The notes under the pieces are model-generated. The model saw nothing but the letters and a program-made list of their open reading frames with translations, ran no database searches and had not been told where the DNA came from. From the NCBI GenBank assembly GCA_045863475.1, contig BTUR01000001.1:59846-123845 (forward strand): a stretch of 64,000 nt of DNA, read 5' to 3'. The DNA is from Candidatus Campbellbacteria bacterium (GTDB taxonomy: Bacteria; Patescibacteriota; Minisyncoccia; Phycocordibacterales; EsbW-18). Positions within the stretch are counted from its first letter, which is position 1. Every line of letters starts with the position of its first letter. Positions 4,226 through 64,000 of this stretch are shown in pieces. The position numbers were made by a program, and so were the translations under genes.

Positions 4226-4317
4226 CTTGTCCACATAAGGCTTTTTTCCGAAAAAAAGCCTTATTTTTCGTGGTATTATTTGGGGTGGCAACTGAAGCCG
4301 CCGATTTTTCATTGTTC

Positions 4318-14100: not shown

Positions 14101-14310
14101 ATGACGCCTATGACCGTTGAACCCATGCCGTTCTCGGGTATGAGTGCGTTCCCGTACCCTGATACGGAGCACTACCCGGACACGCCGGAGTATCAGGAGT
14201 ATCGGGCCAAATACAATACGCGGTACCTCTCTCCTGACACTCCAAGGAGCGGCTCCTCTATTACTGATGCGGCAAAGCGGCTCCTGGATGGCGTCCTTGG
14301 CGGGGAATAG
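11107..14310 (+). CDS. Membrane-anchored protein with two LamG-like (concanavalin A-like lectin) domains and a long Tyr/Pro-rich C-terminal region
   Basis: N-terminal TM helix; duplicated motif L(I/V)(A/G)HWTFDGK(Y/H)MTPNVRD..G..HG.L.N.(T/S)ATTT.IGRIGQALEFDG.(N/D)D(Y/V)V plus I(R/D)VYNR(A/L)L...EI.RLY; 7-nt gap after giant gene suggests one operon. Confidence 0.75.
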   Translation: MRFSRRTIYVVVGVIALIVALYALVTTVRGDTFFGISLRSGSLSDGLIAHWTFDGKYMTPNVRDAAGSYHGVLTNQTATTTRIGRIGQALEFDGDNDYVNLGTIPLSDPLQLSDDVLTISAWFYQKSGGDSFQRIIDKSSNTGATNGWAFFADPSDPNSIWFQSAGSELRSADNVYNQNEWTHAAVVFRANDVKKIYVNGQEVSLQTSNNLNIPNSAVGARIGTWYNATTREWNGYLDDIRVYNRLLSANEIKRLYGLGNTTRISKTISVGSIGATADSGLVGHWTFDGKHMTPNVRDTSGQANHGALANFSATTTAIGRIGQALEFDGLDDVVAITHNSVLNPSGSYTVAAWVYPQTLPTVSNGQWIGIVAKGNTGETSASNHPYVIAYHPVGGGSPVGFGVGLENSSGSNCNAFSSDAEPAGAWYHVVSRFNDSSNVLEVFVNGVSQGSDACSLSPNTGNSRPVWIGDDEHTSGLRFDGVIDDVRIYNRALVDDEIQRLYDQGSGTRITYTPPAEENTAPTVSDSGRSPFHGADLGGSSSIKLFMNTWTDPEGDSIEYYFEFFQNAAFCSGGTGILNSGWISDPTATGGFTVALSAGSTYSWHVKARDEHGLESDYNACYVFTNSIGGSCPYVFGWDGEQYQFEADIYGSGGLGYKKWGASDFVQPSPNRTYVLKYVEPRNGAFEWRIVGDLSEINYFDLFRMYSYFVPEDRDIIVESPTLGSGMSATSTLHTISTAPLSALSATRLDTNEDVTSALSARDEDKVIVNKNKKETYEPVQIEVDFGDISRYSTKKLVVGGSTTYPTTEEGIARKQLYGREWGLYVQDAAGQWQKVPYEKYSPTKPLSFESVLAVDISDIFISENTKLRLEYLYKVYVDYVALDVTEDLPLAVAEEHPITYADLHDFGGWHDFDKDGNVPDYYNVSPLEEDYEDFPGYYTRFGDVTPLLEKRDDKFVILAKRDEITVKNALPKIEPPTGYKRVYMLDVTGYYKALTKTMTPMTVEPMPFSGMSAFPYPDTEHYPDTPEYQEYRAKYNTRYLSPDTPRSGSSITDAAKRLLDGVLGGE

Positions 14311-19977: not shown

Positions 19978-20893
19978 GGCCGTACTGAATATGATTACTT
20001 CAATTAACTGCATACCGCGGAGCATATAGATGCGAGCCCTTGTGGTGCGCCTCGAAACCCTCCGCTCAAAAAGCGGTTTTTTTGTTCTCATAGACAGTCG
20101 ATGACCTTTGACAACTGCATAAGCAATAAAGAATCAAATGCTTATTTCGCGCAAGCGAAGTAAGCGCAGGTATCTCGTGCGGCTCATCTAGCGCCGCGCG
20201 GGAATCAAACAACGTGTACCGCGCAGCGGTGTGTTGGTGCACGGAATCGCAGACGCATGTAGGTGCGTATGCGATAAAGACGGTTTTTAGATTTCCTAAC
20301 GGGAGATTTAAAGGGCGTATGGTGGATGCCTTGGTTCTATGTGGCGATGAAGGACGTGGTGTAACTGCGATAAGCTTCGGGGAGGTGTTAAGCAACCTTT
20401 GATCCGGAGATTTCCGAATGGGGAAACCCTGTCGAGTAACCCTCGATAACCGACGCAGCGATGCGCGGAGCATACCCTGGGAAGTGAAACATCTCAGTAC
20501 CAGGAGGAAAAGAAAACAAATGTCATTCCCTTAGTAGCGGCGAGCGAAACGGGAGCAGCCCAAACCACACTGTACTTGTATAGTGTGGCGTTGTAGGGCG
20601 GTAACGCCTGTTTTTAACAAGGAGAAAGTTACAAAATACATCTTTAGTCGAATGCGCTGGAAAGCGCAATCCCAGAAGGTAACAGTCCTGTAGACGAAAA
20701 AGATGTATCTTTCTAGTTACCGTTCCTGAGTACCTCAAGACACGAATAGCTTGGGGGAATCCGCCGGAACTAACCGGCAAGGCTACATACACATAGAGAC
20801 CGATAGTGAACTAGTACCGCGAGGGAAAGGTGAAAAGAACCCCGGAGAGGGGAGTGAAATAGATCTGAAACCATATGCCTACAAGGAGTCAGA

Positions 20894-21228
20894 GCCGAGC
20901 TCTACTTTTTGTTTTTAATTTTCTTTGAACATGTTGAAGGTACGCTCGTGCATATGCACGTTGTGTATCTGATACAAAACACGGTGAGCCACGAACTGTA
21001 CGTTGGTGTAACACGCGACCTTAAAAAGAGGTTGGTGACACATAACAGCGGTGCGGTTACGGCAACGCGACGCAGCGGCGAGTGGGTCTTGATTTACGCG
21101 GAGGCGTATCGAGATGAGCACGACGCGCGCGAGCGAGAGCATCACCTCAAACAGCGCGGCGCGGCAAAACGCGGCGTGTATGAAAGAGTTCGAAGAAGTT
21201 TCCTTGAAAACAAAAAGTAGAGCTTCGG
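20894..21228 (+). other. Intervening sequence (IVS)-like insertion in the 23S helix-25 region, closed by a ~17-bp stem (gccgagctctactttttg ... caaaaagtagagcttcgg)
   Basis: rRNA similarity is interrupted after CAAGGAGTCAGAGC and resumes at GCGTGCCTATTGAAGAATGAGCCAACGAGTT; the insertion termini are an almost perfect inverted repeat. Confidence 0.65.
20954..21220 (+). CDS. GIY-YIG nuclease-superfamily protein (UPF0213-like, ~88 aa) encoded inside the 23S insertion
   Basis: VYLIQN...ELYVGVTRDLKKRLVTHNSG...LIYAEAYRDEHDAREREHHLK GIY-YIG motifs; ORF exactly fills the loop, stop codon TAG lies in the 3' stem arm. Confidence 0.7.
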   Translation: MHVVYLIQNTVSHELYVGVTRDLKKRLVTHNSGAVTATRRSGEWVLIYAEAYRDEHDAREREHHLKQRGAAKRGVYERVRRSFLENKK

Positions 21229-22640
21229 TCATGGCGTGCCTATTGAAGAATGAGCCAACGAGTTTAAGTATGCGGCGAAGCTAAATCCTTTGTCGGATGA
21301 AGCTGCAGGGAAACCGAGTGTTAATAGCGCGTACTTTGAAAGCAAGGAGGTCGGACGTGTAGGTGAGCAATCACACACGCGTTCGGCATTCTCGCTTTCA
21401 AAAGGTCGTATACTTAAGACCCGAAGCTAGGTGAGCTACCCATGAGCAGGGTGAACTTTGTCGAAAGATGAAGGGAGGCCCGAACCGGTTGATGGTGCAA
21501 AATCTTCGGATGACTTGTGGGTTGGAGTGAAAAGCTTATCGAACCTAGTAATAGCTGGTTCTCTCCGAAACAGCTTTTGGGCTGGCGTACAGCGTACCTC
21601 TTGGGGGTAGAGCACTGGATGGTCCGGATAGGGAGAAATCTCGCTGGACCAATCAAACTCCGAATACCAAGAGTAAGTACTGTGCAGTTAGACCGTGGGG
21701 GCTAAGCTCCACTGGTCAAAAGGGAAACAGCCCTTGATCTCAAGTTAAGGTCCCTAAATCGATGCTAAGTGCAAGTCGAGGAGGTGAAATTTCTCAGACA
21801 CTGAGGAAGTTGGCTTAGAAGCAGCCATCTTTTAAAGAAAGCGTAACAGCTCACTCACTCAGAGATTTCGCGCCACAGACTATCGGGGCTAAGTATCGTA
21901 CCGAAACTGAGGATGACACGTGCGTTCGCGCATGTGTCGTGGTAGGAGAGCATTTCCATCTGCGATGAAGCCGAAGGCGTGAGCCACGGTGGAGCGATGG
22001 GAAGAGAGAATGTTGGTACAAGTAACCGCAATGCGGGTGAAATACCCGCACGCCGAAAAACCGAGGTTTCCTTCGCGATGGTAATCAGCGAAGGGTTAGT
22101 CGGGCCTAAGCGAATGGCGAAAGCCGGACGTGATGGACACACGGTTAATATTCCGTGACTCGGCTGTAATTCGATGGAGAGACGGAGTGAAGTATATATC
22201 GCACATTATTGGATTTGTGTCGGGCATGCGAGGAGGTCTGTTTGGCAAATCCGGCAGACACTACTCCAGAGGCATGTTCGGGAACCCAATCTACGGAACG
22301 GGGAACGATATAAAGCGCGCTTCCAAGAAAATCTTCTAAGGTTAATTACAGACGACCCGTACCGCAAACCGACTCCGGTGGTTAGCTCGAGTAGAGTAAG
22401 GCGAACGAGTGAGAGGTCCTCAAGGAACTCGGCAAAAAAGCGACCGTAAGTTAGCAATAAGGTCTGCCTGCGCAGCAGTGCGTGGGCCGCAGCTAAAGTC
22501 TTCCTGGCGACTGTTTATCAAAAACACAGCTCCCTGCGAACTCGTAAGAGGATGTATAGGGGGTGACACCTGACCAATGCCAGAAGGTCAAGTATGGAGG
22601 GTCTTCTCCGCAAGGAGAAGGCTGAGCTATATAAGCCCTG

Positions 22641-22702
<62 letters not shown>

Positions 22703-22765
22703 ACGCCGATGAGAACAAATGCTATGGTACGTAAATAGTCTGTGCGCATGGCGAAGTGCCACGTG

Positions 22766-23425
22766 CTATGCAGTTTCTTCAGGTGCGGCTGTTTCTCCTT
22801 CTCCCTCCGCAGTTTCATCCTTACCTTTCTTTTCCACTTCGATTGCATCCATGTCAATCGGTGCAACCGGCTCTTCGATTTCTTCTTGCGGCTGAGAAAT
22901 TGCGGCAACCACTTCGTCTCCTTCGTTGAGAATCGTAACACCTGCAGGCACGGGTATGTCTTTAATGACAACTTGACTGTCAAACGTTTCAAGCGATGAC
23001 ACATCAACAGTGAGCTCGTGTGGCAAGTCTTTTGGCATCGCCTCAACTTCCACCTCGTGCATCACCTTCACCAGTGTACCACCCAAGTTCTTAACTGCGG
23101 GCGCCTCACCTGTGAACAACAGCGGGACATCGATGCGAAGCTTCTTTCCTTTCTCGATAACGTAAAAATCAACGTGCTCAAATACATCCGTGACCGGATG
23201 TTTTGTAACTTCATGAACGAGCGCGTCTTTCGGCTCACCAACACCTTCCAGTGTGATGATGGATGATTCACCGGCCGAGCGGAACACTTTTTCAAATGTC
23301 TTGCGGTCAACTGCAATCGGCGTGGATTCCTCTTTCGGACCGTAAAAAACCGCCGGAATCTTGCCGCCTTTGCGCAAGCTCTCCGCGTTTCCTGCCTCTC
23401 GTTTTTCTACTGTAAGCGTCAACAT
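22766..23425 (-). CDS. rplY: 50S ribosomal protein L25 / general stress protein Ctc
   Basis: L25/Ctc family (LTVEKREAG..SLRKGGKIPAVFYG, two beta-barrel domains, acidic tail); start set to MLTLTVEKR. Confidence 0.85.
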   Translation of the reverse strand: MLTLTVEKREAGNAESLRKGGKIPAVFYGPKEESTPIAVDRKTFEKVFRSAGESSIITLEGVGEPKDALVHEVTKHPVTDVFEHVDFYVIEKGKKLRIDVPLLFTGEAPAVKNLGGTLVKVMHEVEVEAMPKDLPHELTVDVSSLETFDSQVVIKDIPVPAGVTILNEGDEVVAAISQPQEEIEEPVAPIDMDAIEVEKKGKDETAEGEGETAAPEETA

Positions 23426-43765: not shown

Positions 43766-44485
43766 TTAATGCTTCTGTGCCCATACCGCGATTGCGGGAA
43801 ACAGAATTTCGCGTTCAGATTTGGGCATATGCAACAAGTACGGAGAGACATCAAATTCCCACTGCAAAACTCTTTCAGCAAGTGCTTTTTTTTCTTCTGT
43901 GTCGGCTATAAATGTCTTGAGAAACCGCTTGTGGTTAGGCATTTGATGATACGTCATGCGCGTCACCTGTGCTCCTTCTTGTTTAAGAATTTGCCTGACT
44001 TTTTCAGGATCGAGATAACACACGTATTTTTTCTCAGACAAAAGAAACGGGAGATTATTCCCCAAAAAAACCTGTAGGCGCTCCTTCAATGACGATGGCA
44101 GAAGCGAGTGTCCGAGGTCATAGCGATGAATAATGTATCCGCCGCTCTTTGTCAGCTGTACACTGTTTTTTAAGAATCGTTCAATCTGCTTTACATGCTC
44201 GAGAACGCTGAGGGACACGCAAAGATCAAACTGTGCTTCGTTACGTAGTGGTTCATATGCCAGTTGATTATAGATACGAACATTTGGAAAACGCGAGAGA
44301 AGTGCCCGTGCAGTATCGGCATCTTCTTTGCGCGGCTCAATACCGATGTACGAAAGTTTTGGAAACCGTTCAAGGAGCGGCAAAAAACTGCGCGACTGCC
44401 CACTACCCAGGTCGACGATACGCGTCGTCTCCCCAACTTCGAGTTCTCGTGCGATACGTTCGATAAAAAACTCTTTCGGCTGCAT
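43766..44485 (-). CDS. Class I SAM-dependent methyltransferase
   Basis: IVDLGSGQS glycine-rich motif I, IGIEP motif II. Confidence 0.7.
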   Translation of the reverse strand: MQPKEFFIERIARELEVGETTRIVDLGSGQSRSFLPLLERFPKLSYIGIEPRKEDADTARALLSRFPNVRIYNQLAYEPLRNEAQFDLCVSLSVLEHVKQIERFLKNSVQLTKSGGYIIHRYDLGHSLLPSSLKERLQVFLGNNLPFLLSEKKYVCYLDPEKVRQILKQEGAQVTRMTYHQMPNHKRFLKTFIADTEEKKALAERVLQWEFDVSPYLLHMPKSEREILFPAIAVWAQKH

Positions 44486-44545
44486 GATATTCGTACTATA
44501 TCATGGCAAGCAAAAAGTGCTCTCGTACGGTACACTAATGGTCGT

Positions 44546-45793
44546 ATGGAACAGATAAAACACCGTCTTATCGGCGCATTGCGTTGGAGCGAAAAATACA
44601 CGAAGACCGACATGGTGTATCTCGTTGGTAATAGTTTCTGGCTCACGGTAGGACAGGGCATCTCCTCTCTAGCATCCCTCGCGCTAATAATTGCGTTTGC
44701 TAACCTTCTCCCAAAAGAAACTTACGGGACTTACAAGTTTGTTCTCTCGGTGGCAAGTGTTCTTTCCGTGCTGACCTTGCCAAGAATGAACACCGCAATC
44801 ACACAGGCCGTTGCACGCGGGTATGAAGGTTCTCTTTTTGTTGGCACAAAAAAACGCGTTATTTGGGGTACGTTCGGTGCTATCGTCTCCTTTTTTGTTT
44901 CCCTTTATTATTTTCTGCAAGGCAACACTGAAATTGCAATTGCACTACTTCTTGCCGCAGCATTTCTTCCCATATTTGATACATTCGGCACCTGGAATGC
45001 ATATCTCCAAGGAAAACAGGATTTTAAATCCGGGGTGATTTATACCACAGTTGTGCACATTGCTTCTGTTACCATACTGTTTCTAACTATTCTTGCCACT
45101 GACAGTCTTCTTGCGATTGTTTTTATCTACTTTCTTTCATATACGCTACTACGCGCTTTCTTTTTCTATCTCACAGTCAAAAAATATACGCCAAATACCC
45201 TGATTGATCCGAGTACGTATTCCTACGGGAAACACCTGACGGCGATGACAGTTTTGAGCACTATCGTTGGACAATTGGACAAAATACTTCTCTTTCATTT
45301 TTTGGGAGCAGCCCAAGTTGCAACATACTCAATCGCCCTGGTTGTACCAGAACAAGTTCAGGGTATGCTTAGAAATGTCGGGGTGGTTGCATTTCCAAAG
45401 TTTGCTTCACAAAGTTTTGAGGATATAAAAAGAAATCTCTCCTTCCGGCTTGCACAATATGGTCTCTTCATAACTATTCTGACCATCCTTTATGTTTTTT
45501 TGGCACCGTTTTTATTTTCTCTTCTTTTTCCCGGATACAGTGACGGCATCCTGCTCTCGCAAATAGTTTCGCTGTCCCTTATTACCGCCTTGGTTGGGCC
45601 TGCCGTAGCAGCCCTAGAAGCTCAACAGAAAAAACAGCAACTCTACATGCTTCGAACCCTCTTTCCTGTTATAGGCATCGTTCTTTTTCTTGCCCTTGTA
45701 CCCACTTTTGGGATTTTAGGAGCAACACTTGCGTTTACTACCCTAAACTTCTCAAAACTCATCCTCTCACTCTTCTTTCTCTATAGGACATAA
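44546..45793 (+). CDS. Polysaccharide biosynthesis flippase (Wzx/MOP-family)
   Basis: ~12 TM helices, Polysacc_synt-like pattern; start trimmed to MEQIKHRL. Confidence 0.7.
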   Translation: MEQIKHRLIGALRWSEKYTKTDMVYLVGNSFWLTVGQGISSLASLALIIAFANLLPKETYGTYKFVLSVASVLSVLTLPRMNTAITQAVARGYEGSLFVGTKKRVIWGTFGAIVSFFVSLYYFLQGNTEIAIALLLAAAFLPIFDTFGTWNAYLQGKQDFKSGVIYTTVVHIASVTILFLTILATDSLLAIVFIYFLSYTLLRAFFFYLTVKKYTPNTLIDPSTYSYGKHLTAMTVLSTIVGQLDKILLFHFLGAAQVATYSIALVVPEQVQGMLRNVGVVAFPKFASQSFEDIKRNLSFRLAQYGLFITILTILYVFLAPFLFSLLFPGYSDGILLSQIVSLSLITALVGPAVAALEAQQKKQQLYMLRTLFPVIGIVLFLALVPTFGILGATLAFTTLNFSKLILSLFFLYRT

Positions 45794-45932
45794 CTTCCAC
45801 CTAAAATAAGTTGTCTGTACAAGTAAAGCTTTAAAAAACGAAACCAGGGTAGAAACCGCCTGTTCTAAAAGAGGAAAGTGGGTTACATTAGTATGGTTCC
45901 CATTAAAACGACGCCAATAGCAACTACACAAC

Positions 45933-46601
45933 ATGCAGAACAACACTCATTTCAGCAAAAAAAATAAAGACTATGAAGCTTACTGGAAGGACAGAATCGG
46001 AAGAAACAGAACTTACATAACACCGATTCATCGAAAAATTTTGGAGTTGGTCTCGAAAATAGCGAAGCCGGGTAGTGCCGTCCTTGATTTGGGGGTTGGT
46101 CCCGGCCACGTGTTTAGAGAATTACAAAAAGACTACAAAGTATACGGGGCGGAAATCTCTACCACAGTATTTGATCTTTATGACTTTCCCACCGAAAACA
46201 TCAAACATGTTGACTTGGAAAAAGAGATGCCCGCGTTTGATGGAAACCCAAACTTCTCCGTGATTATCGCAAGCCACATCATCCACCATTTTGATGATCC
46301 GCTGGCTTTCCTGCGTCGGGTTAAAGAAAAAATGGATAGCAACACTCGCCTCTTGGTGGCCACACCCAATACTGTATTTATAAACTACAGAATAAAATAC
46401 CTCCTTCTTGCTCAGTTTCCTGATCTTAGTCGTGCCCACGTCAACTACCTGACTCCACGTGAATATAGAAAATTATTCGAAGAGGCAGGTCTAGAAATTG
46501 AAACATTTGCAGGAATTAAGCATTACCCCCTCCTAGTTTTAAGCACAATCTTTCCCTCCCTGTTCTCACAAACACTATTCTTTGTTGTTAAAAAGGTCTA
46601 A
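45933..46601 (+). CDS. Class I SAM-dependent methyltransferase (AT-rich gene)
   Basis: VLDLGVGPGHV motif I, acidic motif II YGAEIS. Confidence 0.7.
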   Translation: MQNNTHFSKKNKDYEAYWKDRIGRNRTYITPIHRKILELVSKIAKPGSAVLDLGVGPGHVFRELQKDYKVYGAEISTTVFDLYDFPTENIKHVDLEKEMPAFDGNPNFSVIIASHIIHHFDDPLAFLRRVKEKMDSNTRLLVATPNTVFINYRIKYLLLAQFPDLSRAHVNYLTPREYRKLFEEAGLEIETFAGIKHYPLLVLSTIFPSLFSQTLFFVVKKV

Positions 46602-47201
46602 AACTACCTGTAGGGTTTTTTCTTCTCGCACAATCGATGCGGGAGTTTGAAAGTTTAAGTAATCCCAGTCAATGAAATAAATCTCTCCTTTCTCATTTAG
46701 GAGGATATTTTTAGCTTTAATATCCCCGTGTACGTATCCAAGATCGTGTAGCCTTGAAGTAAAATCTTGAACTTGTTTTTTAATTTTCATTCTTTCAGCC
46801 AGAGTTGGATTTTTTGCCAAAAAATCTTTCAGGCTTTCAGACTCTGTAATAACCTCAGTTAGTATTTTATTTTCAAAAAGAACGACTTTTGGAATATTGT
46901 TTTTTAAAACAACGTCCTCGGTTAGTTTCTTTAGGATTAGAAAACATTCCTTGTCCGGCAACCAATCAAGCCCCATTTTCTTGTGGTAAATCCTGGTAAC
47001 GGGGTTTTTAATTTTTATAACGAACCACTCAGGTTTCTCTTTTTGTTTTACCCTGTAAATAAAATGTGTTGGCTTTTCGTTTCCACAAAAAAAAGAGGTG
47101 ACGTCTAATCGGTTTTTAAACTTCAACTTATAAAAAAATAACACTGGAAAATAGAACAGAAACAGGATAATCTTCGATGTGTAAAGTAAAACACTGTTCA
47201 T
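46575..47201 (-). CDS. Kdo/WaaP-like lipopolysaccharide kinase-family (protein-kinase-like fold) protein, AT-rich gene
   Basis: LHDLGYVHGDIKAKNILL catalytic loop, YFIDWD metal-binding motif, N-terminal membrane anchor. Confidence 0.6.
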   Translation of the reverse strand: MNSVLLYTSKIILFLFYFPVLFFYKLKFKNRLDVTSFFCGNEKPTHFIYRVKQKEKPEWFVIKIKNPVTRIYHKKMGLDWLPDKECFLILKKLTEDVVLKNNIPKVVLFENKILTEVITESESLKDFLAKNPTLAERMKIKKQVQDFTSRLHDLGYVHGDIKAKNILLNEKGEIYFIDWDYLNFQTPASIVREEKTLQVVLDLFNNKE

Positions 47202-47228
47202 TTTCGTTTGATTTCAATAATCGACCGT

Positions 47229-47855
47229 TTATTTTTTTACAACAAAAAAATAACCAAGGGGCATGAAACGTGGAGAAAAGTGGCTATCTTTTTTTATCCA
47301 ACTAATCACCCTATCGAGGAAGCGCACAAGAAGCATCATACCTTCCTTGACCACAGCAAACCTATACAGACCGAATAGCGCGTGGTACAGCACGCTAAAA
47401 GCCCCCGTTCCGAGTGGTGAGACATGTATCTCGGTAAAACCGGCGTCTGCAAAAATACGTTCAAGCGCAGACTGAGTGTAACGAAAATAGTCGTCTGGAG
47501 ACCCGTGGACGTTAAAAAGAAACGGCGTTGAACCAACGAGTACGCCACCTTGTTTGAGTATGCGGAAGCTTTCATTAACCGCGTTTTGGTACCCAAACAA
47601 GTGCTCCAAAACATTGAGCATAATCACGCCGTCATAACTCTCGTCCTTCAAAGGAAAAGGTTTTTGTGCATCAAACGTCATGTCTATATCCACACCCTCC
47701 TTAATATTTGCGACCTGGATCGTATGTGTACCAGAAATAAGTTCGTGGTATCCAGATTTTTTATCTCCACCAACATCGAGTATTTTTCCGTTGATGGTTA
47801 GGTGCGACATGCACTCATATTGAAGCCTGCGAAGCAGTGAAAATGTTTTGGTCAT
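47229..47855 (-). CDS. Class I SAM-dependent methyltransferase (Methyltransf_11-like)
   Basis: ILDVGGDKKSG motif I; ATGA start/stop overlap with upstream methyltransferase. Confidence 0.7.
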   Translation of the reverse strand: MTKTFSLLRRLQYECMSHLTINGKILDVGGDKKSGYHELISGTHTIQVANIKEGVDIDMTFDAQKPFPLKDESYDGVIMLNVLEHLFGYQNAVNESFRILKQGGVLVGSTPFLFNVHGSPDDYFRYTQSALERIFADAGFTEIHVSPLGTGAFSVLYHALFGLYRFAVVKEGMMLLVRFLDRVISWIKKDSHFSPRFMPLGYFFVVKK

Positions 47856-48493
47856 AGCGATGCAATAAAAATAAGGTCGAAAGCAAAGAGGCCAGGTAGC
47901 CATCGCGCAAGTTTTCGGTATTTTCCAAGTCCGATAATTTGGACAGAGGAAAAATGCAGACGCAACATCGCACTGAGTTCTGAGACCGAAAAATGATTTA
48001 TATGTGTCGGATCAGCGAGAGGTGTATTTCTCTTATTCCCCAAAAAAAGCCGGATTCTGTTCTTGATGCTAAACGCGTTCGGTACAGAGCCGATGAACAT
48101 GCCGTTTTCCTTAAGGGCAGCGCGTGCCCGTTGTATAACCTTATTCGGATAATACAAATGTTCAAGTATCTCTCCCGCGACAACAACATCAAAACGCCTG
48201 CCGCCTAGTTCTCCCCAGTCACCGTTAAGATCGAAGCTTTCGGTCTTGATACCCAAATCCCGCCGAGCCTTTTCGAGAAGCCGCTCGTCAATATCAACTC
48301 CAAGCACTTCGTTATGCTTCGAAAAATGTTGCGTAAGCGTACCATCCCTGCATCCGATATCCAGAACCTGCTTCCCCGACCCGATAGTTTGCGATAATAC
48401 TTCGCCACGCTCTTTTTCAAAAACAGAAAAACCGTCCCGTTGGCGTGAGCGGTGGTGTTCTTCGTACATTGTTTTTAGTGTGTTTGTGGTCAT
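47852..48493 (-). CDS. Class I SAM-dependent methyltransferase
   Basis: VLDIGCRDG motif I, FDVVVAGEILEHL. Confidence 0.75.
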   Translation of the reverse strand: MTTNTLKTMYEEHHRSRQRDGFSVFEKERGEVLSQTIGSGKQVLDIGCRDGTLTQHFSKHNEVLGVDIDERLLEKARRDLGIKTESFDLNGDWGELGGRRFDVVVAGEILEHLYYPNKVIQRARAALKENGMFIGSVPNAFSIKNRIRLFLGNKRNTPLADPTHINHFSVSELSAMLRLHFSSVQIIGLGKYRKLARWLPGLFAFDLIFIASL

Positions 48494-58081: not shown

Positions 58082-59869
58082 TTAGTTTTTTTCGTCGCGT
58101 TTAAAGAGATCTTTCAGGACGTGTTCTGGAACTTCTTTTGGTTGTTGCTTCTCCTGCTTCTGTTGCGGCGGTTCAGTTTTTTCCGTCTCTCGGCGCGGTT
58201 CTTCTTTCGGTTTTTGCGGTGCCGCAGGCGGAGGTGTCGGTGTTTTTTCTGCAGCATTCGCTTGTACGTCACCGATAACCGCGGAAAGTGCCGCGCGTAA
58301 GTCAGAGAGGTGCGCTTGTGACGGCCCCTTCTCTTTTTTCACGTGTTTGTGTTTTTGTTTGTGCCGATCTGCATCGTGACGGAGATTGGAAAGCGACACC
58401 GCTGCACGCAGTTGTGTCTCTCGATCAACAGCGGGTGCCGGAGCAGGTGCCGGGCCCCTGTGAGCGTGCTCGGGTCGCTCTGTGCGCGGCTGCTGCGGCC
58501 GACGCTCTTCTCGGCGAGGGCCGTGATTCCCGTGTCCCTCACCTTCTGGTCGAGGTTGCGCGCTCTTGCCGAAGTTTTTTTGGTGCCATTTCAAAATGTC
58601 GTTCTCCACAACGGCGCGCGGATGCGCGAATTGCGCACGTGAACGCGCGATAGAAACGTCACGGTATGAAATGTGCGGCACGGTAATCGGCGGCAGCGTA
58701 CGCGCGGAGAACGGCGAGGACGCCATGCCGTCAATCATGAGCTTGAGATAAATCTGGTAGCGGTCCAGGTTCACAAGGTCTTCGGCGGTAAATGCCGGCG
58801 CGTACTCCTTCTCAAGATATTCGGCGTCAGTCGCACCGACACGAAATGTCATCATGGTGCCGACGTTGCCGAACACGGCGGCGCGTACTTCCTCGGACAT
58901 TTGTTCAATGTACTGGTGCGCGATGGTGAGGTTGAGCTTGTACTTGCGAGCTTCCGAGAGAATGTCGGCAAACGACTCGTTGGCAAATGACTGAAATTCG
59001 TCCACGTACAGATAGAAGTTCGGCAGCTTTTCAAGTTCCGGCTCGCGCAAATCAGCGCGTGACATCGCGGCGAGGTAAATCTTCGTGATAATCATGGAAC
59101 CAAGGAGGTTCGCACTGTCCTCACCCACCTGCCCCTTTGAGAGGTTGATGATGAGAATCTTTTTCTTGTCCATGATTTCGCGGATGTTGAACGTGGACTT
59201 CGGCTGACCGATGATGTTGCGGATAACCGGATTGGCGGTGAATTGTCCGACCTTGTTTTGAATTGCCGGTGTTGCCTCTTGTGCGAAGCGGTCGGTGTAG
59301 TTGGCAAACTCATCTTCCCAGAACGATTTCACACCCGGGTCGGTAACGTGCGAAACAACTTCCTTGCGAAAATCTTTGTCCGCGAGCATGCGGTTAATGC
59401 CAAGCAGTGTTGAGCCCGGATACTCCAGGAGGGCGAGAATGGTGTTGTTGAGAATGTACTCCATGCGCGCCGACCATGCATCCACCCAGATTTTTTTGAA
59501 CGCCGACATCAAACCCGCCGCAACGAGGTGGCGCTTGTCCGGTCCGATATCTTCCATGACGTTGAATGACACCGGGTTGGCGAGGTCAAACGGTGCAAAA
59601 TACAGCACGTCGTCAACGCGCTCTTTGGGAATGTAGTCGAGGAGTAAGTCGGCGCTCCGTCCGTGCGGATCAATAAACGCGAACCCTTCGCCGTTTTGGA
59701 TATCCTGAACGGCCATGTTCTCCAGGAGTACAGACTTACCGACACCGGTCTTACCGATGACATACACGTGGCGCGTACGGTCTTTCGCCTTAATGCCGAA
59801 TTTTACCCGTTTGCTGCGATAATCGGTCTCGCCGATATACGTGATGCGGTTTGGGTCGTAGGAGGACAT
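58082..59869 (-). CDS. P-loop ATPase of the VirD4/TraD/HerA-FtsK (DUF87-like) clade with long disordered Pro/Glu/Lys-rich C-terminal tail
   Basis: Walker A HVYVIGKTGVGKS, Walker B NFYLYVDEFQ, sensor TIAHQ; low-complexity tail ...PRREERRPQQPRTERPEH...KQEKQQPKE; start set at MSSYDP. Confidence 0.55.
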   Translation of the reverse strand: MSSYDPNRITYIGETDYRSKRVKFGIKAKDRTRHVYVIGKTGVGKSVLLENMAVQDIQNGEGFAFIDPHGRSADLLLDYIPKERVDDVLYFAPFDLANPVSFNVMEDIGPDKRHLVAAGLMSAFKKIWVDAWSARMEYILNNTILALLEYPGSTLLGINRMLADKDFRKEVVSHVTDPGVKSFWEDEFANYTDRFAQEATPAIQNKVGQFTANPVIRNIIGQPKSTFNIREIMDKKKILIINLSKGQVGEDSANLLGSMIITKIYLAAMSRADLREPELEKLPNFYLYVDEFQSFANESFADILSEARKYKLNLTIAHQYIEQMSEEVRAAVFGNVGTMMTFRVGATDAEYLEKEYAPAFTAEDLVNLDRYQIYLKLMIDGMASSPFSARTLPPITVPHISYRDVSIARSRAQFAHPRAVVENDILKWHQKNFGKSAQPRPEGEGHGNHGPRREERRPQQPRTERPEHAHRGPAPAPAPAVDRETQLRAAVSLSNLRHDADRHKQKHKHVKKEKGPSQAHLSDLRAALSAVIGDVQANAAEKTPTPPPAAPQKPKEEPRRETEKTEPPQQKQEKQQPKEVPEHVLKDLFKRDEKN

Positions 59870-59945
59870 GGATTTCAAAGACTGTGGGTCCCGCGCGGCG
59901 GCGGACCAGCTAGAGTTCAGTATAAAGCACAAATGAAAAAGAAAA

Positions 59946-59977
59946 AGCGCCGAGCTGTCTGAGCAGACAGCTCGGCG
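59946..59977 (-). terminator. Strong rho-independent terminator for the minus-strand small-gene operon
   Basis: gcgccgagctgtc tgagca gacagctcggcgc (13-bp stem); minus strand followed by tttttctttttcattt. Confidence 0.75.
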
Positions 59978-60006
59978 CGAACCCCGCGTCCTTCCTCAGT
60001 AGTTGA

Positions 60007-60456
60007 TCACAGCGATAGGCCTCCTTGGTTGACCCTGTCTGCGTTGACGTTCCTGACGGCGCCACGTGCAATCTCTTCGACGGTCGCGAGATCGTGCGGG
60101 TCTCCCCACACCCACCGCACTTCTTTGACATCACGCCATGCACCAAGCAGGTGCGGGTACGCGTCCGGTTCGACGGTAAACAATCTCCAGTCGTCGTACA
60201 CAACGAAGCGCCACGGATGGCGGCGCCAGTACGTGACCTGCACCCCGTCGTGGTTCTTGAGGCGCTGTTGAACAACGTGCTCCGGCATCAACGTATCGCA
60301 CGGAGTCACAAACAGCATCCAGAGCCGAATCTCCTCTTTGGACGAAAGACCGCGAATCGGCGCTCGCTTGAGAAGCCCTCGCCAGTACTCATACCGTTCC
60401 ACGGGATGATTCCCGATGACGACGTCCTCCAAGGGACGTGGTCTGTTGTAGAGCAT
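60007..60456 (-). CDS. Hypothetical protein (149 aa), Trp/Arg-rich
   Basis: RBS ggggggtgg 5 nt upstream of ATG (MLYNRPRP); ~58% GC; terminator downstream. Confidence 0.5.
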   Translation of the reverse strand: MLYNRPRPLEDVVIGNHPVERYEYWRGLLKRAPIRGLSSKEEIRLWMLFVTPCDTLMPEHVVQQRLKNHDGVQVTYWRRHPWRFVVYDDWRLFTVEPDAYPHLLGAWRDVKEVRWVWGDPHDLATVEEIARGAVRNVNADRVNQGGLSL

Positions 60457-60584
60457 TGATCCACCCCCCGACTTGTCGGTAATGCTGTCTTGAAAAATGT
60501 GCTTCTGCACACTACCCTACTCTGCAAAAACACGAAAATCAAGAACGCCGTCCGGGGTTAGCCCGAGACGGCGTTGAAGAACAG

Positions 60585-60824
60585 TCATGATTCGGTTTGG
60601 CATCCATCGCGCCTGATACGCTCGCCGCGCACACCGGCGAAGAGCCAGACGGCTTTCAGAAGAAATGCTTCCTTCCAGGTCCCCGACGACACCGCCGTCG
60701 CACCGTATTGCACGAGTGTGTCAGCAAGTGCAATGACCCAGATGAACGTAACCAGGGACAGCGGAATGAAAAAGAGTCCCGTGCCGGAGAGCGCGTACCC
60801 GAATGGCACAAGAAACTTCTTCAT
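60585..60824 (-). CDS. Small two-TM membrane protein (79 aa)
   Basis: RBS ggaaggtgag; ATGA overlap with upstream ORF stop; hydrophobic helices. Confidence 0.45.
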   Translation of the reverse strand: MKKFLVPFGYALSGTGLFFIPLSLVTFIWVIALADTLVQYGATAVSSGTWKEAFLLKAVWLFAGVRGERIRRDGCQTES

Positions 60825-61063
60825 GCGCTCACCTTCCTGCACCAGATGGAGATGGCCTTGGAACCTTTCTTCCACGTAACCCTCCATCCGCGTTCCTTGT
60901 ACATCTTGAAGAGACACTGCAACACTTCCGCCGGCAGACCCGTCGGCGAATCCCACCGGCCAACGGTCAGCAAACCCGTGTTGATGGAGCCCTCGAGATA
61001 CGAGAGCATCGCCGGCAGATTGTTTTGGCAATCCAGATGATCCTGCACCGATACGACGCGCAT
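60821..61063 (-). CDS. Hypothetical small protein (80 aa)
   Basis: Strong RBS gggagggag immediately upstream of ATG; 57 nt after hydrolase gene stop. Confidence 0.45.
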   Translation of the reverse strand: MRVVSVQDHLDCQNNLPAMLSYLEGSINTGLLTVGRWDSPTGLPAEVLQCLFKMYKERGWRVTWKKGSKAISIWCRKVSA

Positions 61064-61119: not shown

Positions 61120-62481
61120 CTACCGCCCTGTCGGTGTCAAAGAGCTGCCGGTGGCAGTCGCTTCATGGAGTGCAGCGCGTGTGTACGTGTTGCCTGCATC
61201 CCACAGCGCCCAGGAGGTCAGTCCTGCGTCGTATGTTGCCTGCATCTGTGCACGAACCATCTCAGGTGTATACGTCGCGCCGAGGTCAAAGTCCTGCAGC
61301 CAAGGGCGCATTTGTAGTACGTTGATGTTGCCATGTCCTTTGTTTGCCTGTGTACGCAAATAGGTGGCTTCGGTTGTTGTTGCGGTTGAATTTTTTGCCT
61401 CCGCCATAGCACGCACGCGCCGCACCGCCTCGTCCATAGAATACTTCACCACTTCGTACGGGGAGCTTGCCGGTTTTGCAATCCCGATGAATCCTGCGTT
61501 GTAGTGCGACGGGTACACCATCGGCATCACGTAATCAAAGTACGGGAGCGCGCGTTCAAGCAGCTGTCCGATGCCGAGATCGTCGCGGTTCGTTGTTGTG
61601 TACCCAAAGAGATCAACGGAGAGCACCGGGCGCGGTTCATCGTCTGAGAAAATATTGCGCACCGAACGCAAACCCGACGTCGGTGCCTCGCCCGTATCAA
61701 GTGCTTCGTAGAGATATGCGAAAAAAGTTTCGAGCTCCACATCTTTCGGCTTGCCCTCAGAGAGCGTGAACGCGATATCTTTCATGTTGCCGTCGGACGG
61801 ATAGCGCACGTAGTCGTAGTTAAGTTCATCAAACCCGAGTGCGTATGACTCACGCGACAGTTCAATGATGTAGTCCCAGAATGGACGCGCACCGACATCG
61901 ATAAATGACAGTCCTTTGTGGTCCGTCCAGACAACCGACGTGTCACTCTCTTTCTTCACCGCGAGTTCCGGGTGCAGTTTGCTGTAAAACGGATCTTGGA
62001 ACACCGTAATGCGTCCGACGACGTAAATATTTTTGCCGTGGAGCATTTTGATGAACTCTTTCATGTCACGCGCGCCACACGCGTCAGATACGGACGGTGC
62101 AAGCACCGGATTATCGGTCGTAAAGGCGATTTTTCCGGAAAAATCCTTGATGTCAATGATAACGGCGTTGAGTTCGGTCTCATCAATGAGCTTTACGAGC
62201 TTCTCGCGAAACGACGGTGTGCCGACGACACACTGCGTCATGTAAATTGCCTTGAGCGGGTCGGGTGTCGGGAGGTGCACCACGTCAGAGGCGGGCTTTT
62301 TTTCCTCTTCGTCAAACGTCGCGTTCTGTGCCTTCACTTCCTGCTGGTTGTATCGGTATGAAAAAATCTGCGGTCCGATGAAAAAACCAACAAGGAAGAT
62401 GACGACTGCCACCAACGATGCCCAGAGGAGCACCGGAGAGAACCATCGTATATGTTTACGCGATATGGGTTGTTTCATCAT
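61120..62481 (-). CDS. Putative TIM-barrel glycoside hydrolase-like protein (DUF4015/GHL-type), N-terminal signal anchor
   Basis: TM anchor ...LLWASLVAVVIFLVGFFIG; NAVIIDIKDFSGKIAF, GRITVFQDPFY motifs typical of DUF4015 family; start set to MMKQP. Confidence 0.6.
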   Translation of the reverse strand: MMKQPISRKHIRWFSPVLLWASLVAVVIFLVGFFIGPQIFSYRYNQQEVKAQNATFDEEEKKPASDVVHLPTPDPLKAIYMTQCVVGTPSFREKLVKLIDETELNAVIIDIKDFSGKIAFTTDNPVLAPSVSDACGARDMKEFIKMLHGKNIYVVGRITVFQDPFYSKLHPELAVKKESDTSVVWTDHKGLSFIDVGARPFWDYIIELSRESYALGFDELNYDYVRYPSDGNMKDIAFTLSEGKPKDVELETFFAYLYEALDTGEAPTSGLRSVRNIFSDDEPRPVLSVDLFGYTTTNRDDLGIGQLLERALPYFDYVMPMVYPSHYNAGFIGIAKPASSPYEVVKYSMDEAVRRVRAMAEAKNSTATTTEATYLRTQANKGHGNINVLQMRPWLQDFDLGATYTPEMVRAQMQATYDAGLTSWALWDAGNTYTRAALHEATATGSSLTPTGR

Positions 62482-63109
62482 GTGATACTTCTTGCCGCAG
62501 TGTCCCGCCATACCGCAGATATAATCCCCAAGCGATATAAAACAGTCCGATGCCTGCTGAAATCCATTGCTTCCAGAGAAGCGGAATGCCGATGACCTGC
62601 GTCAACAGGAGCACCACACCAAGCAAAACGAGTGTGCGTGTTTGTTTGCGGTTCATGGGGATAAGTATAGCGTGCAGAACCAAAATATTGTAGTGTGAAT
62701 TACAGACGAACCGCGAAGCATGCGCTTCGCAGAAAGGAGAGCACCATGAGAGCGTGGAGGGGATGATGCGTAGGCACACCCGCAGGAAAACTTCCAACTT
62801 CGGCAAGATGATCGACCGCGGTATCTGGATTCGCCACAGGTACATCCAGAACGGCATCCGCCGGCGCATCATCGATGGACGACGCAGTTACATCGTCCGG
62901 GCTCACCGTGGAAGGAGCACCTCACATCGGTGCAGGAGCACCGTCACCAACATGAAGGCCCGTACCATCTAGGGGGTGATCCGGCGCCTCGGCGCCATAT
63001 CTGCCGCCGACGGGGCGGTGCAGGGTCCCACCGCAACGGGTAGTTGCCGCAGCACCATCCGCAACACTCTCCTGCCACCACGGCCGTCTCGATTCCGAGG
63101 CGGCCGCGT

Positions 63110-63805
63110 TTATTTTCCAGAAACAATCACCACAAATTCCCCTTTTTGCTTCTCTGTGTTGTCTTCAAAATATTTCAGTACCTCTTCGGCACTTCCGCGC
63201 ACTACTTCTTCGTAAATTTTGGTCAGTTCGCGCGCGATGACGACAGTTTTTTCTTTCGGCAGAACATCCGAAAGTGACGCGAGTGTTTTCATGATGCGGT
63301 GCGGTGATTCATAGAAAATCATCGCGCGCTTACTCTCCGCAATCTCTTTGAAGAGTGTTTGGCGTCCTTTTTTGTGCGGCAAAAACCCTAAGAACACAAA
63401 ATCCGCAACGGGCACGCTTGCAATGGAGAGCGCTGCAGTGAGCGCCGAAGGACCGGGAATAACTTCAATGCGAACATCCGGCATTTTCTCCCGAACGACT
63501 GACACCACGAGCCCGCCCGGGTCCGATACGCCCGGCGTTCCTGCATCAGAGACGAGCGCAACCTTCTTCCCCTCAGTTAGTGCTCCCATCACTGAGCCGA
63601 TTTTTGCGTGTTCGGTGCGCGCATTCAAAGATGTCGTGCGTGTGTGAATGTCGTACTTATCCAGCAGGCGCTTCGTTACTCGTGTGTCTTCACAAAAAAT
63701 AACGTCCGCCTCTTTCAAAATGCGCAACGCGCGGAGCGTCACGTCTTCCAAGTTGCCTATCGGCGTTCCCACCACGTAAAGCGTTCCGAGTATTTCACTT
63801 GTCAT
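63110..63805 (-). CDS. rsmI: 16S rRNA (cytidine1402-2'-O)-methyltransferase
   Basis: LYVVGTPIGNLEDVTLRALRILKEADVIFCEDTR tetrapyrrole-methylase-family N-terminus; start trimmed to MTSEILG. Confidence 0.85.
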   Translation of the reverse strand: MTSEILGTLYVVGTPIGNLEDVTLRALRILKEADVIFCEDTRVTKRLLDKYDIHTRTTSLNARTEHAKIGSVMGALTEGKKVALVSDAGTPGVSDPGGLVVSVVREKMPDVRIEVIPGPSALTAALSIASVPVADFVFLGFLPHKKGRQTLFKEIAESKRAMIFYESPHRIMKTLASLSDVLPKEKTVVIARELTKIYEEVVRGSAEEVLKYFEDNTEKQKGEFVVIVSGK

Positions 63806-63825
63806 ACGGGCACTATACATGAAAC

Positions 63826-63852
63826 CGAAACGCCCCGCGAGGAATCCTCGCG
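63826..63852 (-). terminator. Rho-independent terminator for gene entering from window end
   Basis: cgccccgcgaggaatcctcgcggggcg with T-run on minus strand. Confidence 0.5.
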
Positions 63853-63872
63853 GGGCGCGAAACGAACGGAGG

Positions 63873-64000
63873 TTAGACGACGTATGTCTTGAGCAACTGA
63901 TCATCGAGATCCAACTCCTCACCGAGAGCACGCGCATACCCGAGAGTCCTACGGGCGCTCCTCTCATCGCCGTATGAGGTGTACGCTTCGGCGAGCTGCT
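63873..64000 (-). CDS. 3' end of a CDS continuing beyond the window (unknown product)
   Basis: Open minus-strand frame to window edge, stop TAA at 63873-63875. Confidence 0.3.
   Translation of the reverse strand, partial: QLAEAYTSYGDERSARRTLGYARALGEELDLDDQLLKTYVV

Follow-up and report, generated by a model that had tools for sequence, protein, structure and literature searches.

What does a gene that resembles the motor of a conjugation apparatus do in a chromosome where no such apparatus lies beside it? The question is raised by an ATPase gene on the minus strand of a 64,000-nucleotide window (i.e., the whole stretch of DNA analysed here) from Candidatus Campbellbacteria. This stretch belongs to the ordinary chromosome of a candidate phyla radiation (CPR)/Patescibacteria genome, and its genes include S7, EF-G, ParB, SecA, MurB, Obg, GatB, GAPDH, transketolase and aldolase as well as a large glycosyltransferase/polysaccharide cluster. 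An earlier note on this DNA, made from the letters alone, had described the gene as an orphan ATPase of the VirD4/TraD/HerA clade with Walker motifs, and had offered as its role a conjugative-element remnant, a DNA-uptake motor, or part of a defence or secretion module with the adjacent small genes. The clade assignment was borne out and could be sharpened, since the Pfam matches, the match to TrwB and the plasmid relatives place the ATPase by sequence in the type IV coupling protein (T4CP; VirD4/TrwB) branch of the FtsK-HerA P-loop ATPases. Moreover, the gene is a slowly evolving, vertically inherited chromosomal core gene of Parcubacteria (class Paceibacteria).

An ATPase of the coupling-protein branch

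The gene and the parts of its core are located as follows.

58082..59869, minus strand: coding sequence of the T4CP-like ATPase, 595 aa plus stop, with the start moved from the TTG at 59932 to the ATG at 59869
58574..59869, minus strand: conserved core (aa 1-432), a RecA-like nucleotide-binding domain with an inserted all-alpha domain
59732..59755, minus strand: Walker A, GKTGVGKS (aa 39-46), aligning to the TrwB P-loop
58991..59014, minus strand: Walker B, YLYVDEFQ (aa 286-293), aligning to the TrwB DE
59165..59557, minus strand: all-alpha insertion (~aa 105-235), counterpart of the TrwB all-alpha domain (AAD), with modelled helices at 113-234

The longest open reading frame (ORF) at the locus, which the earlier note had taken as the gene, covers 58082..59932 on the minus strand, opens with a TTG and encodes 616 aa. 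That ORF is real, but its start is almost certainly the ATG at 59869, because the N-termini of 20 homologues align there, and the resulting 595-aa product is identical to the deposited AMXMBFR44_1260 from a Candidatus Campbellbacteria metagenome-assembled genome. Three Pfam models of coupling proteins matched the product, namely TrwB_AAD_bind (PF10412, 32.2 bits against a cut-off of 20.5, covering aa 48-366), T4SS-DNA_transf (PF02534, 26.3 bits against 20.1) and TraG-D_C (PF12696, 22.6 bits against 22.0); all of them exceed their gathering cut-offs, yet the matches are weak, and DUF87 was marginal (23.4 against 23.2). In the PDB, TrwB was the sole solved structure matched by sequence, whether the single protein or a family profile was used, with no sequence-level match to HerA or VirB4 chains, and it was also the top match in Foldseek. 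An AlphaFold2 model built from a 21-sequence alignment is confident in the core (pLDDT mostly 85-96 across aa 1-430), where it has a RecA-like domain with two short strands before the P-loop and an all-helical insertion at aa 113-234. Across 21 aligned sequences GKTGVGKS, the T4CP-type motif FIDPHG (aa 65-70), YLYVDEFQ, R308/K309, H318/Q319 and R343 are invariant, and the ATPase motifs align with the equivalent motifs of TrwB, R308 being what we take to be the counterpart of the TrwB arginine finger. With its motifs intact, the ATPase is predicted to be catalytically competent.

The same Pfam matches, TrwB match and plasmid T4CP relatives (described below) argue for the T4CP branch and not for FtsK, VirB4 or HerA proper. 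A HerA-type N-terminal barrel is absent, no NurA, Sir2 or DUF4297 partner was found among the neighbours, and with VirB4 only the C-terminal ATPase fold is common. Profile classification, a check that the earlier note had suggested, thus did not lead to the FtsK housekeeping family, although the gene nevertheless behaves as a core chromosomal gene. The N-terminal transmembrane (TM) domain of T4CPs was not found: the ATPase contains no TM segment (top 19-residue Kyte-Doolittle mean 1.15), and Walker A begins at aa 39.

A slowly evolving gene in a class-wide block

Homologues of the ATPase are abundant, the close ones numbering more than 8,000. In a database clustered at 90% identity, 8,000 of 8,000 scored candidates fell at E<=0.001, and the 120 homologues listed were 57-100% identical to the ATPase, while of the 22,766 clusters that passed E<=1e-3 in a library clustered at 50% identity, 6,240 also passed E<=1e-30. 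Gene order was followed in 80 loci from GTDB species representatives, in which ORFs were called and the proteins clustered; 77 sources were counted, with the window included. The same co-directional block recurs in these 77 species sources, which answers the earlier note's call for a check of neighbourhood conservation: Mur ligase(s), an RsmI-like methyltransferase (43/77), a small 2-TM protein of family c5 (39/77), DUF4015 (upstream in 56/77, directly adjacent in 26), the ATPase, and then an LTD protein (at +1 in 22/77) or GT4 glycosyltransferases (49/77). The genes are closely spaced, the median gap being ~65 bp between DUF4015 and the ATPase and ~8 bp between the ATPase and the ORF downstream. 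Median pairwise identity, compared for the same genome pairs, was 68.7% for the ATPase, as against 54.7% for RsmI, 48.6% for the Mur ligase and 48.2% for DUF4015. Within the window, the members of the block are:

63110..63967, minus strand: RsmI-like methyltransferase (TP_methylase), which opens the syntenic block
62456..62656, minus strand: small 2-TM hairpin protein of 66 aa (family c5), with a P-F-L-G-F-P..W-K turn motif
61120..62511, minus strand: DUF4015 protein (putative glycoside hydrolase; Pfam 1.2e-79) with an N-terminal TM helix
56783..57886, minus strand: secreted LTD + PKD protein, the frequent downstream neighbour

In transcription order, the RsmI-like methyltransferase, the 66-aa protein, DUF4015 and two to three small unannotated ORFs precede the ATPase, and the LTD+PKD protein, a polysaccharide deacetylase, a GNAT/FemAB-like protein, a DegT-like protein and GT4 glycosyltransferases follow it. 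The stop codon of c5 overlaps the start of DUF4015, and this pair is kept in ~40 Parcubacteria species; the window copy of c5 was recognised from its motif and position rather than from BLAST clustering.

Between DUF4015 and the ATPase lie two or three small ORFs at 60007-61031 (minus strand), which encode a 167-aa soluble protein and a ~96-aa TM protein and occur only in close Campbellbacteria relatives (loci L091 and L092). The 167-aa protein and its relatives carry the motifs H-x-V-x-R-Y..R and W..GPWRLV...T[VI]EPD, and no Pfam or PADLOC match was obtained for any of these ORFs. Just upstream of the ATPase we also found a candidate terminator:

59947..59978, minus strand: intrinsic-terminator-like hairpin of 14 pairs, 10 of them G-C, followed by the T-run TTTTTCTTTT

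This strong hairpin (59978..59947) stops ~15 nt upstream of the TTG and would insulate the ATPase from the small ORFs. The small ORFs were therefore rejected as ATPase partners, being clade-restricted, separated by the terminator and without Pfam or PADLOC match, and the module that the earlier note had drawn between the ATPase and this small-gene operon falls with them. With the terminator upstream and a gap of 195 bp downstream, the ATPase looks monocistronic in this genome.

Soluble and membrane-anchored forms

Two architectures were distinguished among 150 best representatives. In 76 of them the P-loop lies near residue 40, as in the window, and the protein is soluble (type A), whereas 42 carry an N-terminal extension of 330-490 aa (type B), about half of these with a hydrophobic, TM-like segment. 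A search seeded with one type B protein identified the extension as Pfam PF26449 (DUF8128). Three genomes bearing the label Saccharimonadia or Berkelbacteria each encode two type B proteins in tandem, B1 (~800 aa) and B2 (~1,000 aa), which are translationally coupled, follow a ~100-aa Pro/Glu-rich gene and lie between tgt and secDF; a hetero-oligomeric motor made of both is possible. The tandem loci are:

L088, 5311-11048: B1+B2
L089, 5286-10970: B1+B2
L090, 5283-10916: B1+B2

The window ATPase is 54% identical to B2 over 430 aa and 42% to B1, whilst B1 and B2 share 35%, and in a rough neighbour-joining tree types A and B2 are intermixed, with B1 as their sister and the plasmid T4CPs outside. 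The intermixing and the identities together suggest that type A is the B2 orthologue minus the membrane/DUF8128 module, and the window ATPase is accordingly best described, on these sequence relationships, as the Parcubacteria form of a Patescibacteria-wide chromosomal subfamily. Unlike in the Saccharimonadia tandem paralogues, a second copy of the ATPase was found with the family hidden Markov model (HMM) neither in the window nor in the 77 loci. That the DUF8128 module had been split off into a separate gene was also considered and ruled out, as an HMM built from 120 N-terminal extensions matched nothing among the six-frame ORFs of the window or the ORFs of the related loci.

A tblastn search of plasmids returned 681 records. 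In one of them, from Embleya, the T4CP (E 4e-51) has PrgI, a VirB4-like ATPase and a replication-relaxation relaxase as neighbours, and a 26-kb B. subtilis plasmid carries a 412-aa homologue next to genes for a relaxase and an ATPase of VirB4 size; judged by size alone, this homologue is too small for an N-terminal extension. A pLS20-type identity was tried for this Bacillus homologue and rejected, since the pLS20 T4CP has 786 aa and 2 TM helices, and this mismatch in size assigns the 412-aa protein to a different plasmid family. The closest plasmid homologue (41.6% identity, 395 aa) is encoded in Sulfitobacter mediterraneus (NZ_CP081110.1, 99994-101181), likewise too short for the extension, as an isolated gene between a DUF3768 gene and transposases. 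This alphaproteobacterial copy, far from the CPR, may reflect horizontal transfer.

A basic tail with three conserved helices

The remainder of the protein is a tail in which three short motifs stand out.

58085..58573, minus strand: disordered basic tail (aa 433-595), rich in Pro/Lys/Ala/Glu/Arg/Gln, net charge +9
58382..58426, minus strand: tail motif 1, DRETQLRAAVSLSNL (aa 482-496), predicted helix at 483-491, conserved in the alignment
58271..58330, minus strand: tail motif 2, KGPSQAHLSDLRAALSAVIG (aa 514-533), predicted helix with a His/Lys-rich patch before it
58094..58138, minus strand: tail motif 3, KEVPEHVLKDLFKRD (aa 578-592), C-terminal amphipathic helix

The long, disordered, charged and low-complexity tail of the earlier note is confirmed in its disorder (pLDDT <50 over most of its length in the AlphaFold2 model) and in its Pro/Lys/Glu/Gln-rich composition (P 13%, K 11%, A 11%, E 11%, R 10% and Q 8% in the last 165 aa). 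The charge proved to be basic, however, and the tail carries three conserved helices. Whilst tail length ranges from 83 to 470 aa among homologues, the motifs keep their distance from the C-terminus, with DRExxLRxAVSL ~114 aa, KGPSxxxLxDLRxAL ~85 aa and KEVPExVL(K/R)K(L/I)(L/F) ~16 aa before it, the last of these found by a strict pattern in 134 of 195 homologues. The hydrophobic moment of motif 3 is 0.56, as compared with a tail background median of 0.26. Tails of the soluble form are net positive in 91% of cases (median +7; n=252 scored) and those of type B net negative (median -10), and the three motifs were present in 0 of the 129 type B sequences checked.

These conserved helices look like docking sites. 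A MinD-like membrane-targeting sequence was considered for motif 3 and appears less likely: the helix is amphipathic, but its consensus (E-V-P-E-[DE]-V-L-K-K-L-L-E) is acidic to neutral. Because several acidic residues lie within the motif, a protein-docking role is favoured over a membrane anchor.

A proposed translocase acting in trans on a chromosomal secretion system

Our preferred reading, to which we give a probability of about 45%, is that of a hexameric translocase that would dock in trans on a chromosomal type IV secretion system (T4SS) and serve a function dispensable in laboratory co-culture. The ATPase would form a TrwB-like hexameric ring and would use ATP hydrolysis to pass on or thread a macromolecule, either DNA or an unfolded protein. 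As the N-terminal TM/DUF8128 module would have been lost in the Parcubacteria lineage, we propose that the ring would instead be placed by its long, basic and disordered tail, whose three conserved amphipathic helices would dock onto partner proteins or the membrane. The partner would be the chromosomal monoderm-type (MPF-FATA-like) T4SS, which is presumably encoded elsewhere in most Patescibacteria genomes with no linked T4CP, and the ATPase would serve a transfer function. We favour this reading because the nearest relatives of the ATPase are monoderm conjugative T4CPs and because the T4SS of Patescibacteria lacks a linked T4CP.

Published data fit this arrangement in part. A survey of 3,035 Patescibacteria genomes reported 5,713 VirD4-type T4CP homologues in 2,918 of them, only 148 being near virB4, and found the Patescibacteria T4SS to be MPF-FATA-like (Quiñonero-Coronel et al. 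2025, PMC12102498). In Southlakia epibionticum ML1, the essential T4SS cluster is without a recognisable coupling protein (Wang et al. 2023, PMC10633639). The same study lists the likely B2-type orthologue of the window ATPase, SEML1_0293, an assignment made by length and Pfam layout only: the protein has 921 aa with TrwB_AAD_bind at 402-719 and is flagged as a core Patescibacteria-enriched family (PMC10633639 Table S1). The gene was called non-essential, and its normalised Tn-seq reads went from 5817 to 2940 and 1372, i.e. a ~four-fold fall over outgrowth (PMC10633639). As a separate observation, the 2025 survey counts one non-essential t4cp homologue in ML1 (PMC12102498), whilst Table S1 of PMC10633639 shows a second T4CP-like gene, SEML1_0142 (1,019 aa, 'TraM recognition domain'), which was called essential together with the small upstream gene SEML1_0141.

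Several results weigh against a role with the T4SS. No T4SS, relaxase or pilus genes were found by Pfam scans of ~50 ORFs over the whole 64 kb, in agreement with the orphan status claimed by the earlier note, and no T4SS- or relaxase-like conserved neighbour family occurs within 10 kb on either side in the 77 loci. The NCBIfam T4CP models (TraD, CD1115 VirD4-like, CedD) score far under their cut-offs, the best being SXT_TraD with 50.5 bits against 366. The tail of the soluble form is basic, whereas that of the membrane-anchored form is acidic; the tail of TraD is acidic as well. Across Patescibacteria, VirB4 is present in fewer genomes than T4CP homologues (2,417/3,035 as compared with 2,918/3,035), and relaxases are almost absent (PMC12102498). 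Finally, SEML1_0293 is non-essential and the T4SS genes are essential, so that the presumed orthologue is not needed for the essential T4SS function.

Alternative readings

The alternative that survives best, which we consider a serious though less probable competitor, is that the T4CP fold was domesticated in Parcubacteria as a T4SS-independent motor for another core process, such as an envelope or surface-polymer role together with the 2-TM, DUF4015, LTD and GT4 proteins, cytoplasmic DNA uptake, or nucleoid handling, the basic tail then binding nucleic acid or membrane. Such an exaptation would sit well with the class-wide, co-directional block and its short gaps, with a conservation above that of housekeeping enzymes, with a tail that is basic here and acidic in the membrane-anchored form, and with a likely Southlakia orthologue that is non-essential next to an essential T4SS. 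T4CP homologues being commoner than VirB4 also speaks for it, and the authors of the survey state that exaptation of t4cp cannot be excluded (PMC12102498). However, the synteny is absent from the three type B loci examined, where the orthologue lies between tgt and secDF, and with rsmI in the block the Parcubacteria gene order may be inherited rather than functional; in the window itself, the terminator and the 195-bp gap isolate the ATPase. That no ComFA is annotated in Southlakia counts for exaptation as well, but reads in comEC stayed flat (PMC10633639 Table S1) whereas mutants of SEML1_0293 fall ~four-fold, which argues against a pure DNA-uptake role. Against exaptation it also counts that Southlakia has a canonical FtsK, which is essential (PMC10633639 Table S1). 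The narrower claim that the soluble Parcubacteria form is no longer a secretion component, but a core cytoplasmic T4CP-derived ring translocase that would be positioned by its tail and act with the envelope block or on nucleic acids, we hold to be somewhat unlikely.

An anti-phage defence ATPase (HerA-, DptH/DndH- or MADS mad8-like) is improbable. PADLOC matched the ATPase to the mad8 profile only (7.6e-17), whilst 0 of the 4 flanking proteins scanned matched any PADLOC model, and the defence module of the earlier note is thus not supported. As compared with HerA, the VirB4 C-terminal domain and DptH (DndH), the ATPase is without NurA, Sir2 or Dnd partners and without the VirB4 N-terminal domain; nor is there a nuclease or methylase partner, the neighbours being housekeeping and envelope genes, and a near-universal, slowly evolving and syntenic gene would be atypical of defence islands.

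A decaying remnant of an integrated conjugative element, as the earlier note had also offered, would explain an orphan T4CP-like gene with no T4SS or relaxase nearby and with relatives on plasmids, but is effectively refuted. All catalytic motifs are intact and invariant, the gene keeps the same chromosomal position in 77 species under very strong purifying selection, its GC content is similar to that of its surroundings, and no integrase or transposase genes were found in the window scans; an identity above that of the RsmI and Mur ligase neighbours rules out a decaying mobile-element gene. That the gene encodes a VirB4 paralogue or an FtsK/SpoIIIE-type housekeeping translocase of the chromosome is equally improbable, given that the ATPase has no FtsK_SpoIIIE Pfam match, gamma domain or 4-TM region, scores 12.7 bits with the VirB4 model TIGR00929 against a cut-off of 643, does not fit the CagE_TrbE_VirB profile either, and has T4CPs as its relatives at the sequence level.

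Comparison with known coupling proteins

With TrwB (R388), VirD4, TraD and Cag-beta the ATPase shares the RecA-like nucleotide-binding domain with Walker A, DPxG, Walker B and an Arg/Lys pair, and the inserted all-alpha domain. It differs from them in having no N-terminal TM domain and no linked T4SS or relaxase, in being chromosomal, vertically inherited and very slow to evolve, and in its long basic three-helix tail in place of an acidic one. The Legionella DotL (IcmO) is membrane-anchored and encoded with the Dot/Icm genes, and its tail has no sequence similarity to that of the ATPase. The orphan T4CPs of Patescibacteria and the DUF8128 proteins of Saccharimonadia, the latter probably with SEML1_0293 among them, belong to the same subfamily and are likewise unlinked to virB4; the Saccharimonadia forms, however, have the 330-490-aa TM + DUF8128 extension, acidic tails free of the motifs and another genomic context.

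A precedent for a separate membrane partner is given by pIP501, where the monoderm T4CP TraJ has been proposed to be anchored via the small two-TM protein TraI (PMC12857230). By analogy, c5, a 2-TM protein encoded two genes upstream of the ATPase, could serve as its membrane partner. This is only a lead, since TraJ lies in the T4SS operon beside TraI, whereas c5 is translationally coupled to DUF4015 and not to the ATPase.

Other features of the window

Three further observations concern other parts of the window. A 23S rRNA gene at 20299-22833 (plus strand) covers all 2,925 positions of the Rfam model despite a length of only 2,535 nt and stands alone, with no 16S, 5S or tRNA genes found in the 64 kb; the 23S thus appears to be without several expansion helices, and the rRNA genes appear unlinked. 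At 4270-11100 (plus strand) an ORF of 2,276 aa carries a YadA-head repeat, Peptidase_S74 (endosialidase chaperone) near the C-terminus and a Pro/Glu repeat tail, and is followed at 11107-14310 (plus strand) by an ORF of 1,067 aa with two Laminin_G_3 domains; these products probably serve an episymbiont as surface fibres or adhesins. A low-GC island at ~44000-48000 (0.40-0.43 vs ~0.53 elsewhere), which lies inside the polysaccharide cluster and encodes a Wzx-like flippase and several methyltransferases, may have been acquired horizontally as a surface-glycan cassette.

Significance

Orphan T4CP homologues across Patescibacteria have already been published (Quiñonero-Coronel 2025), and the window gene is one of them, so that the present result is a refinement and not a discovery. 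New, as far as we found in the literature, are the TM-less Parcubacteria architecture, its B2 orthology and the B1/B2 tandem, as well as the tail motifs, the charge inversion between the two forms, the RsmI/2-TM/DUF4015/ATPase block and the above-housekeeping conservation. A large part of bacterial diversity belongs to Patescibacteria, which depend on hosts. In their only genetically tractable species the T4SS is essential, and its cluster is without a linked coupling protein or relaxase. An ATPase that is near-universal, whose evolution is slower than that of rRNA-modification and cell-wall enzymes and which has no linkage to the T4SS is bound to have an important role, whether in feeding the T4SS in trans or in a newly acquired task. 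The contrast between the soluble and the TM + DUF8128 form, the three-helix basic tail and the conserved neighbours provide handles for interaction screens and genetics. Should the ATPase prove to be an exapted core machine, it would represent a new functional class of FtsK-HerA ATPase and would help to define the cell biology of ultra-small episymbionts.

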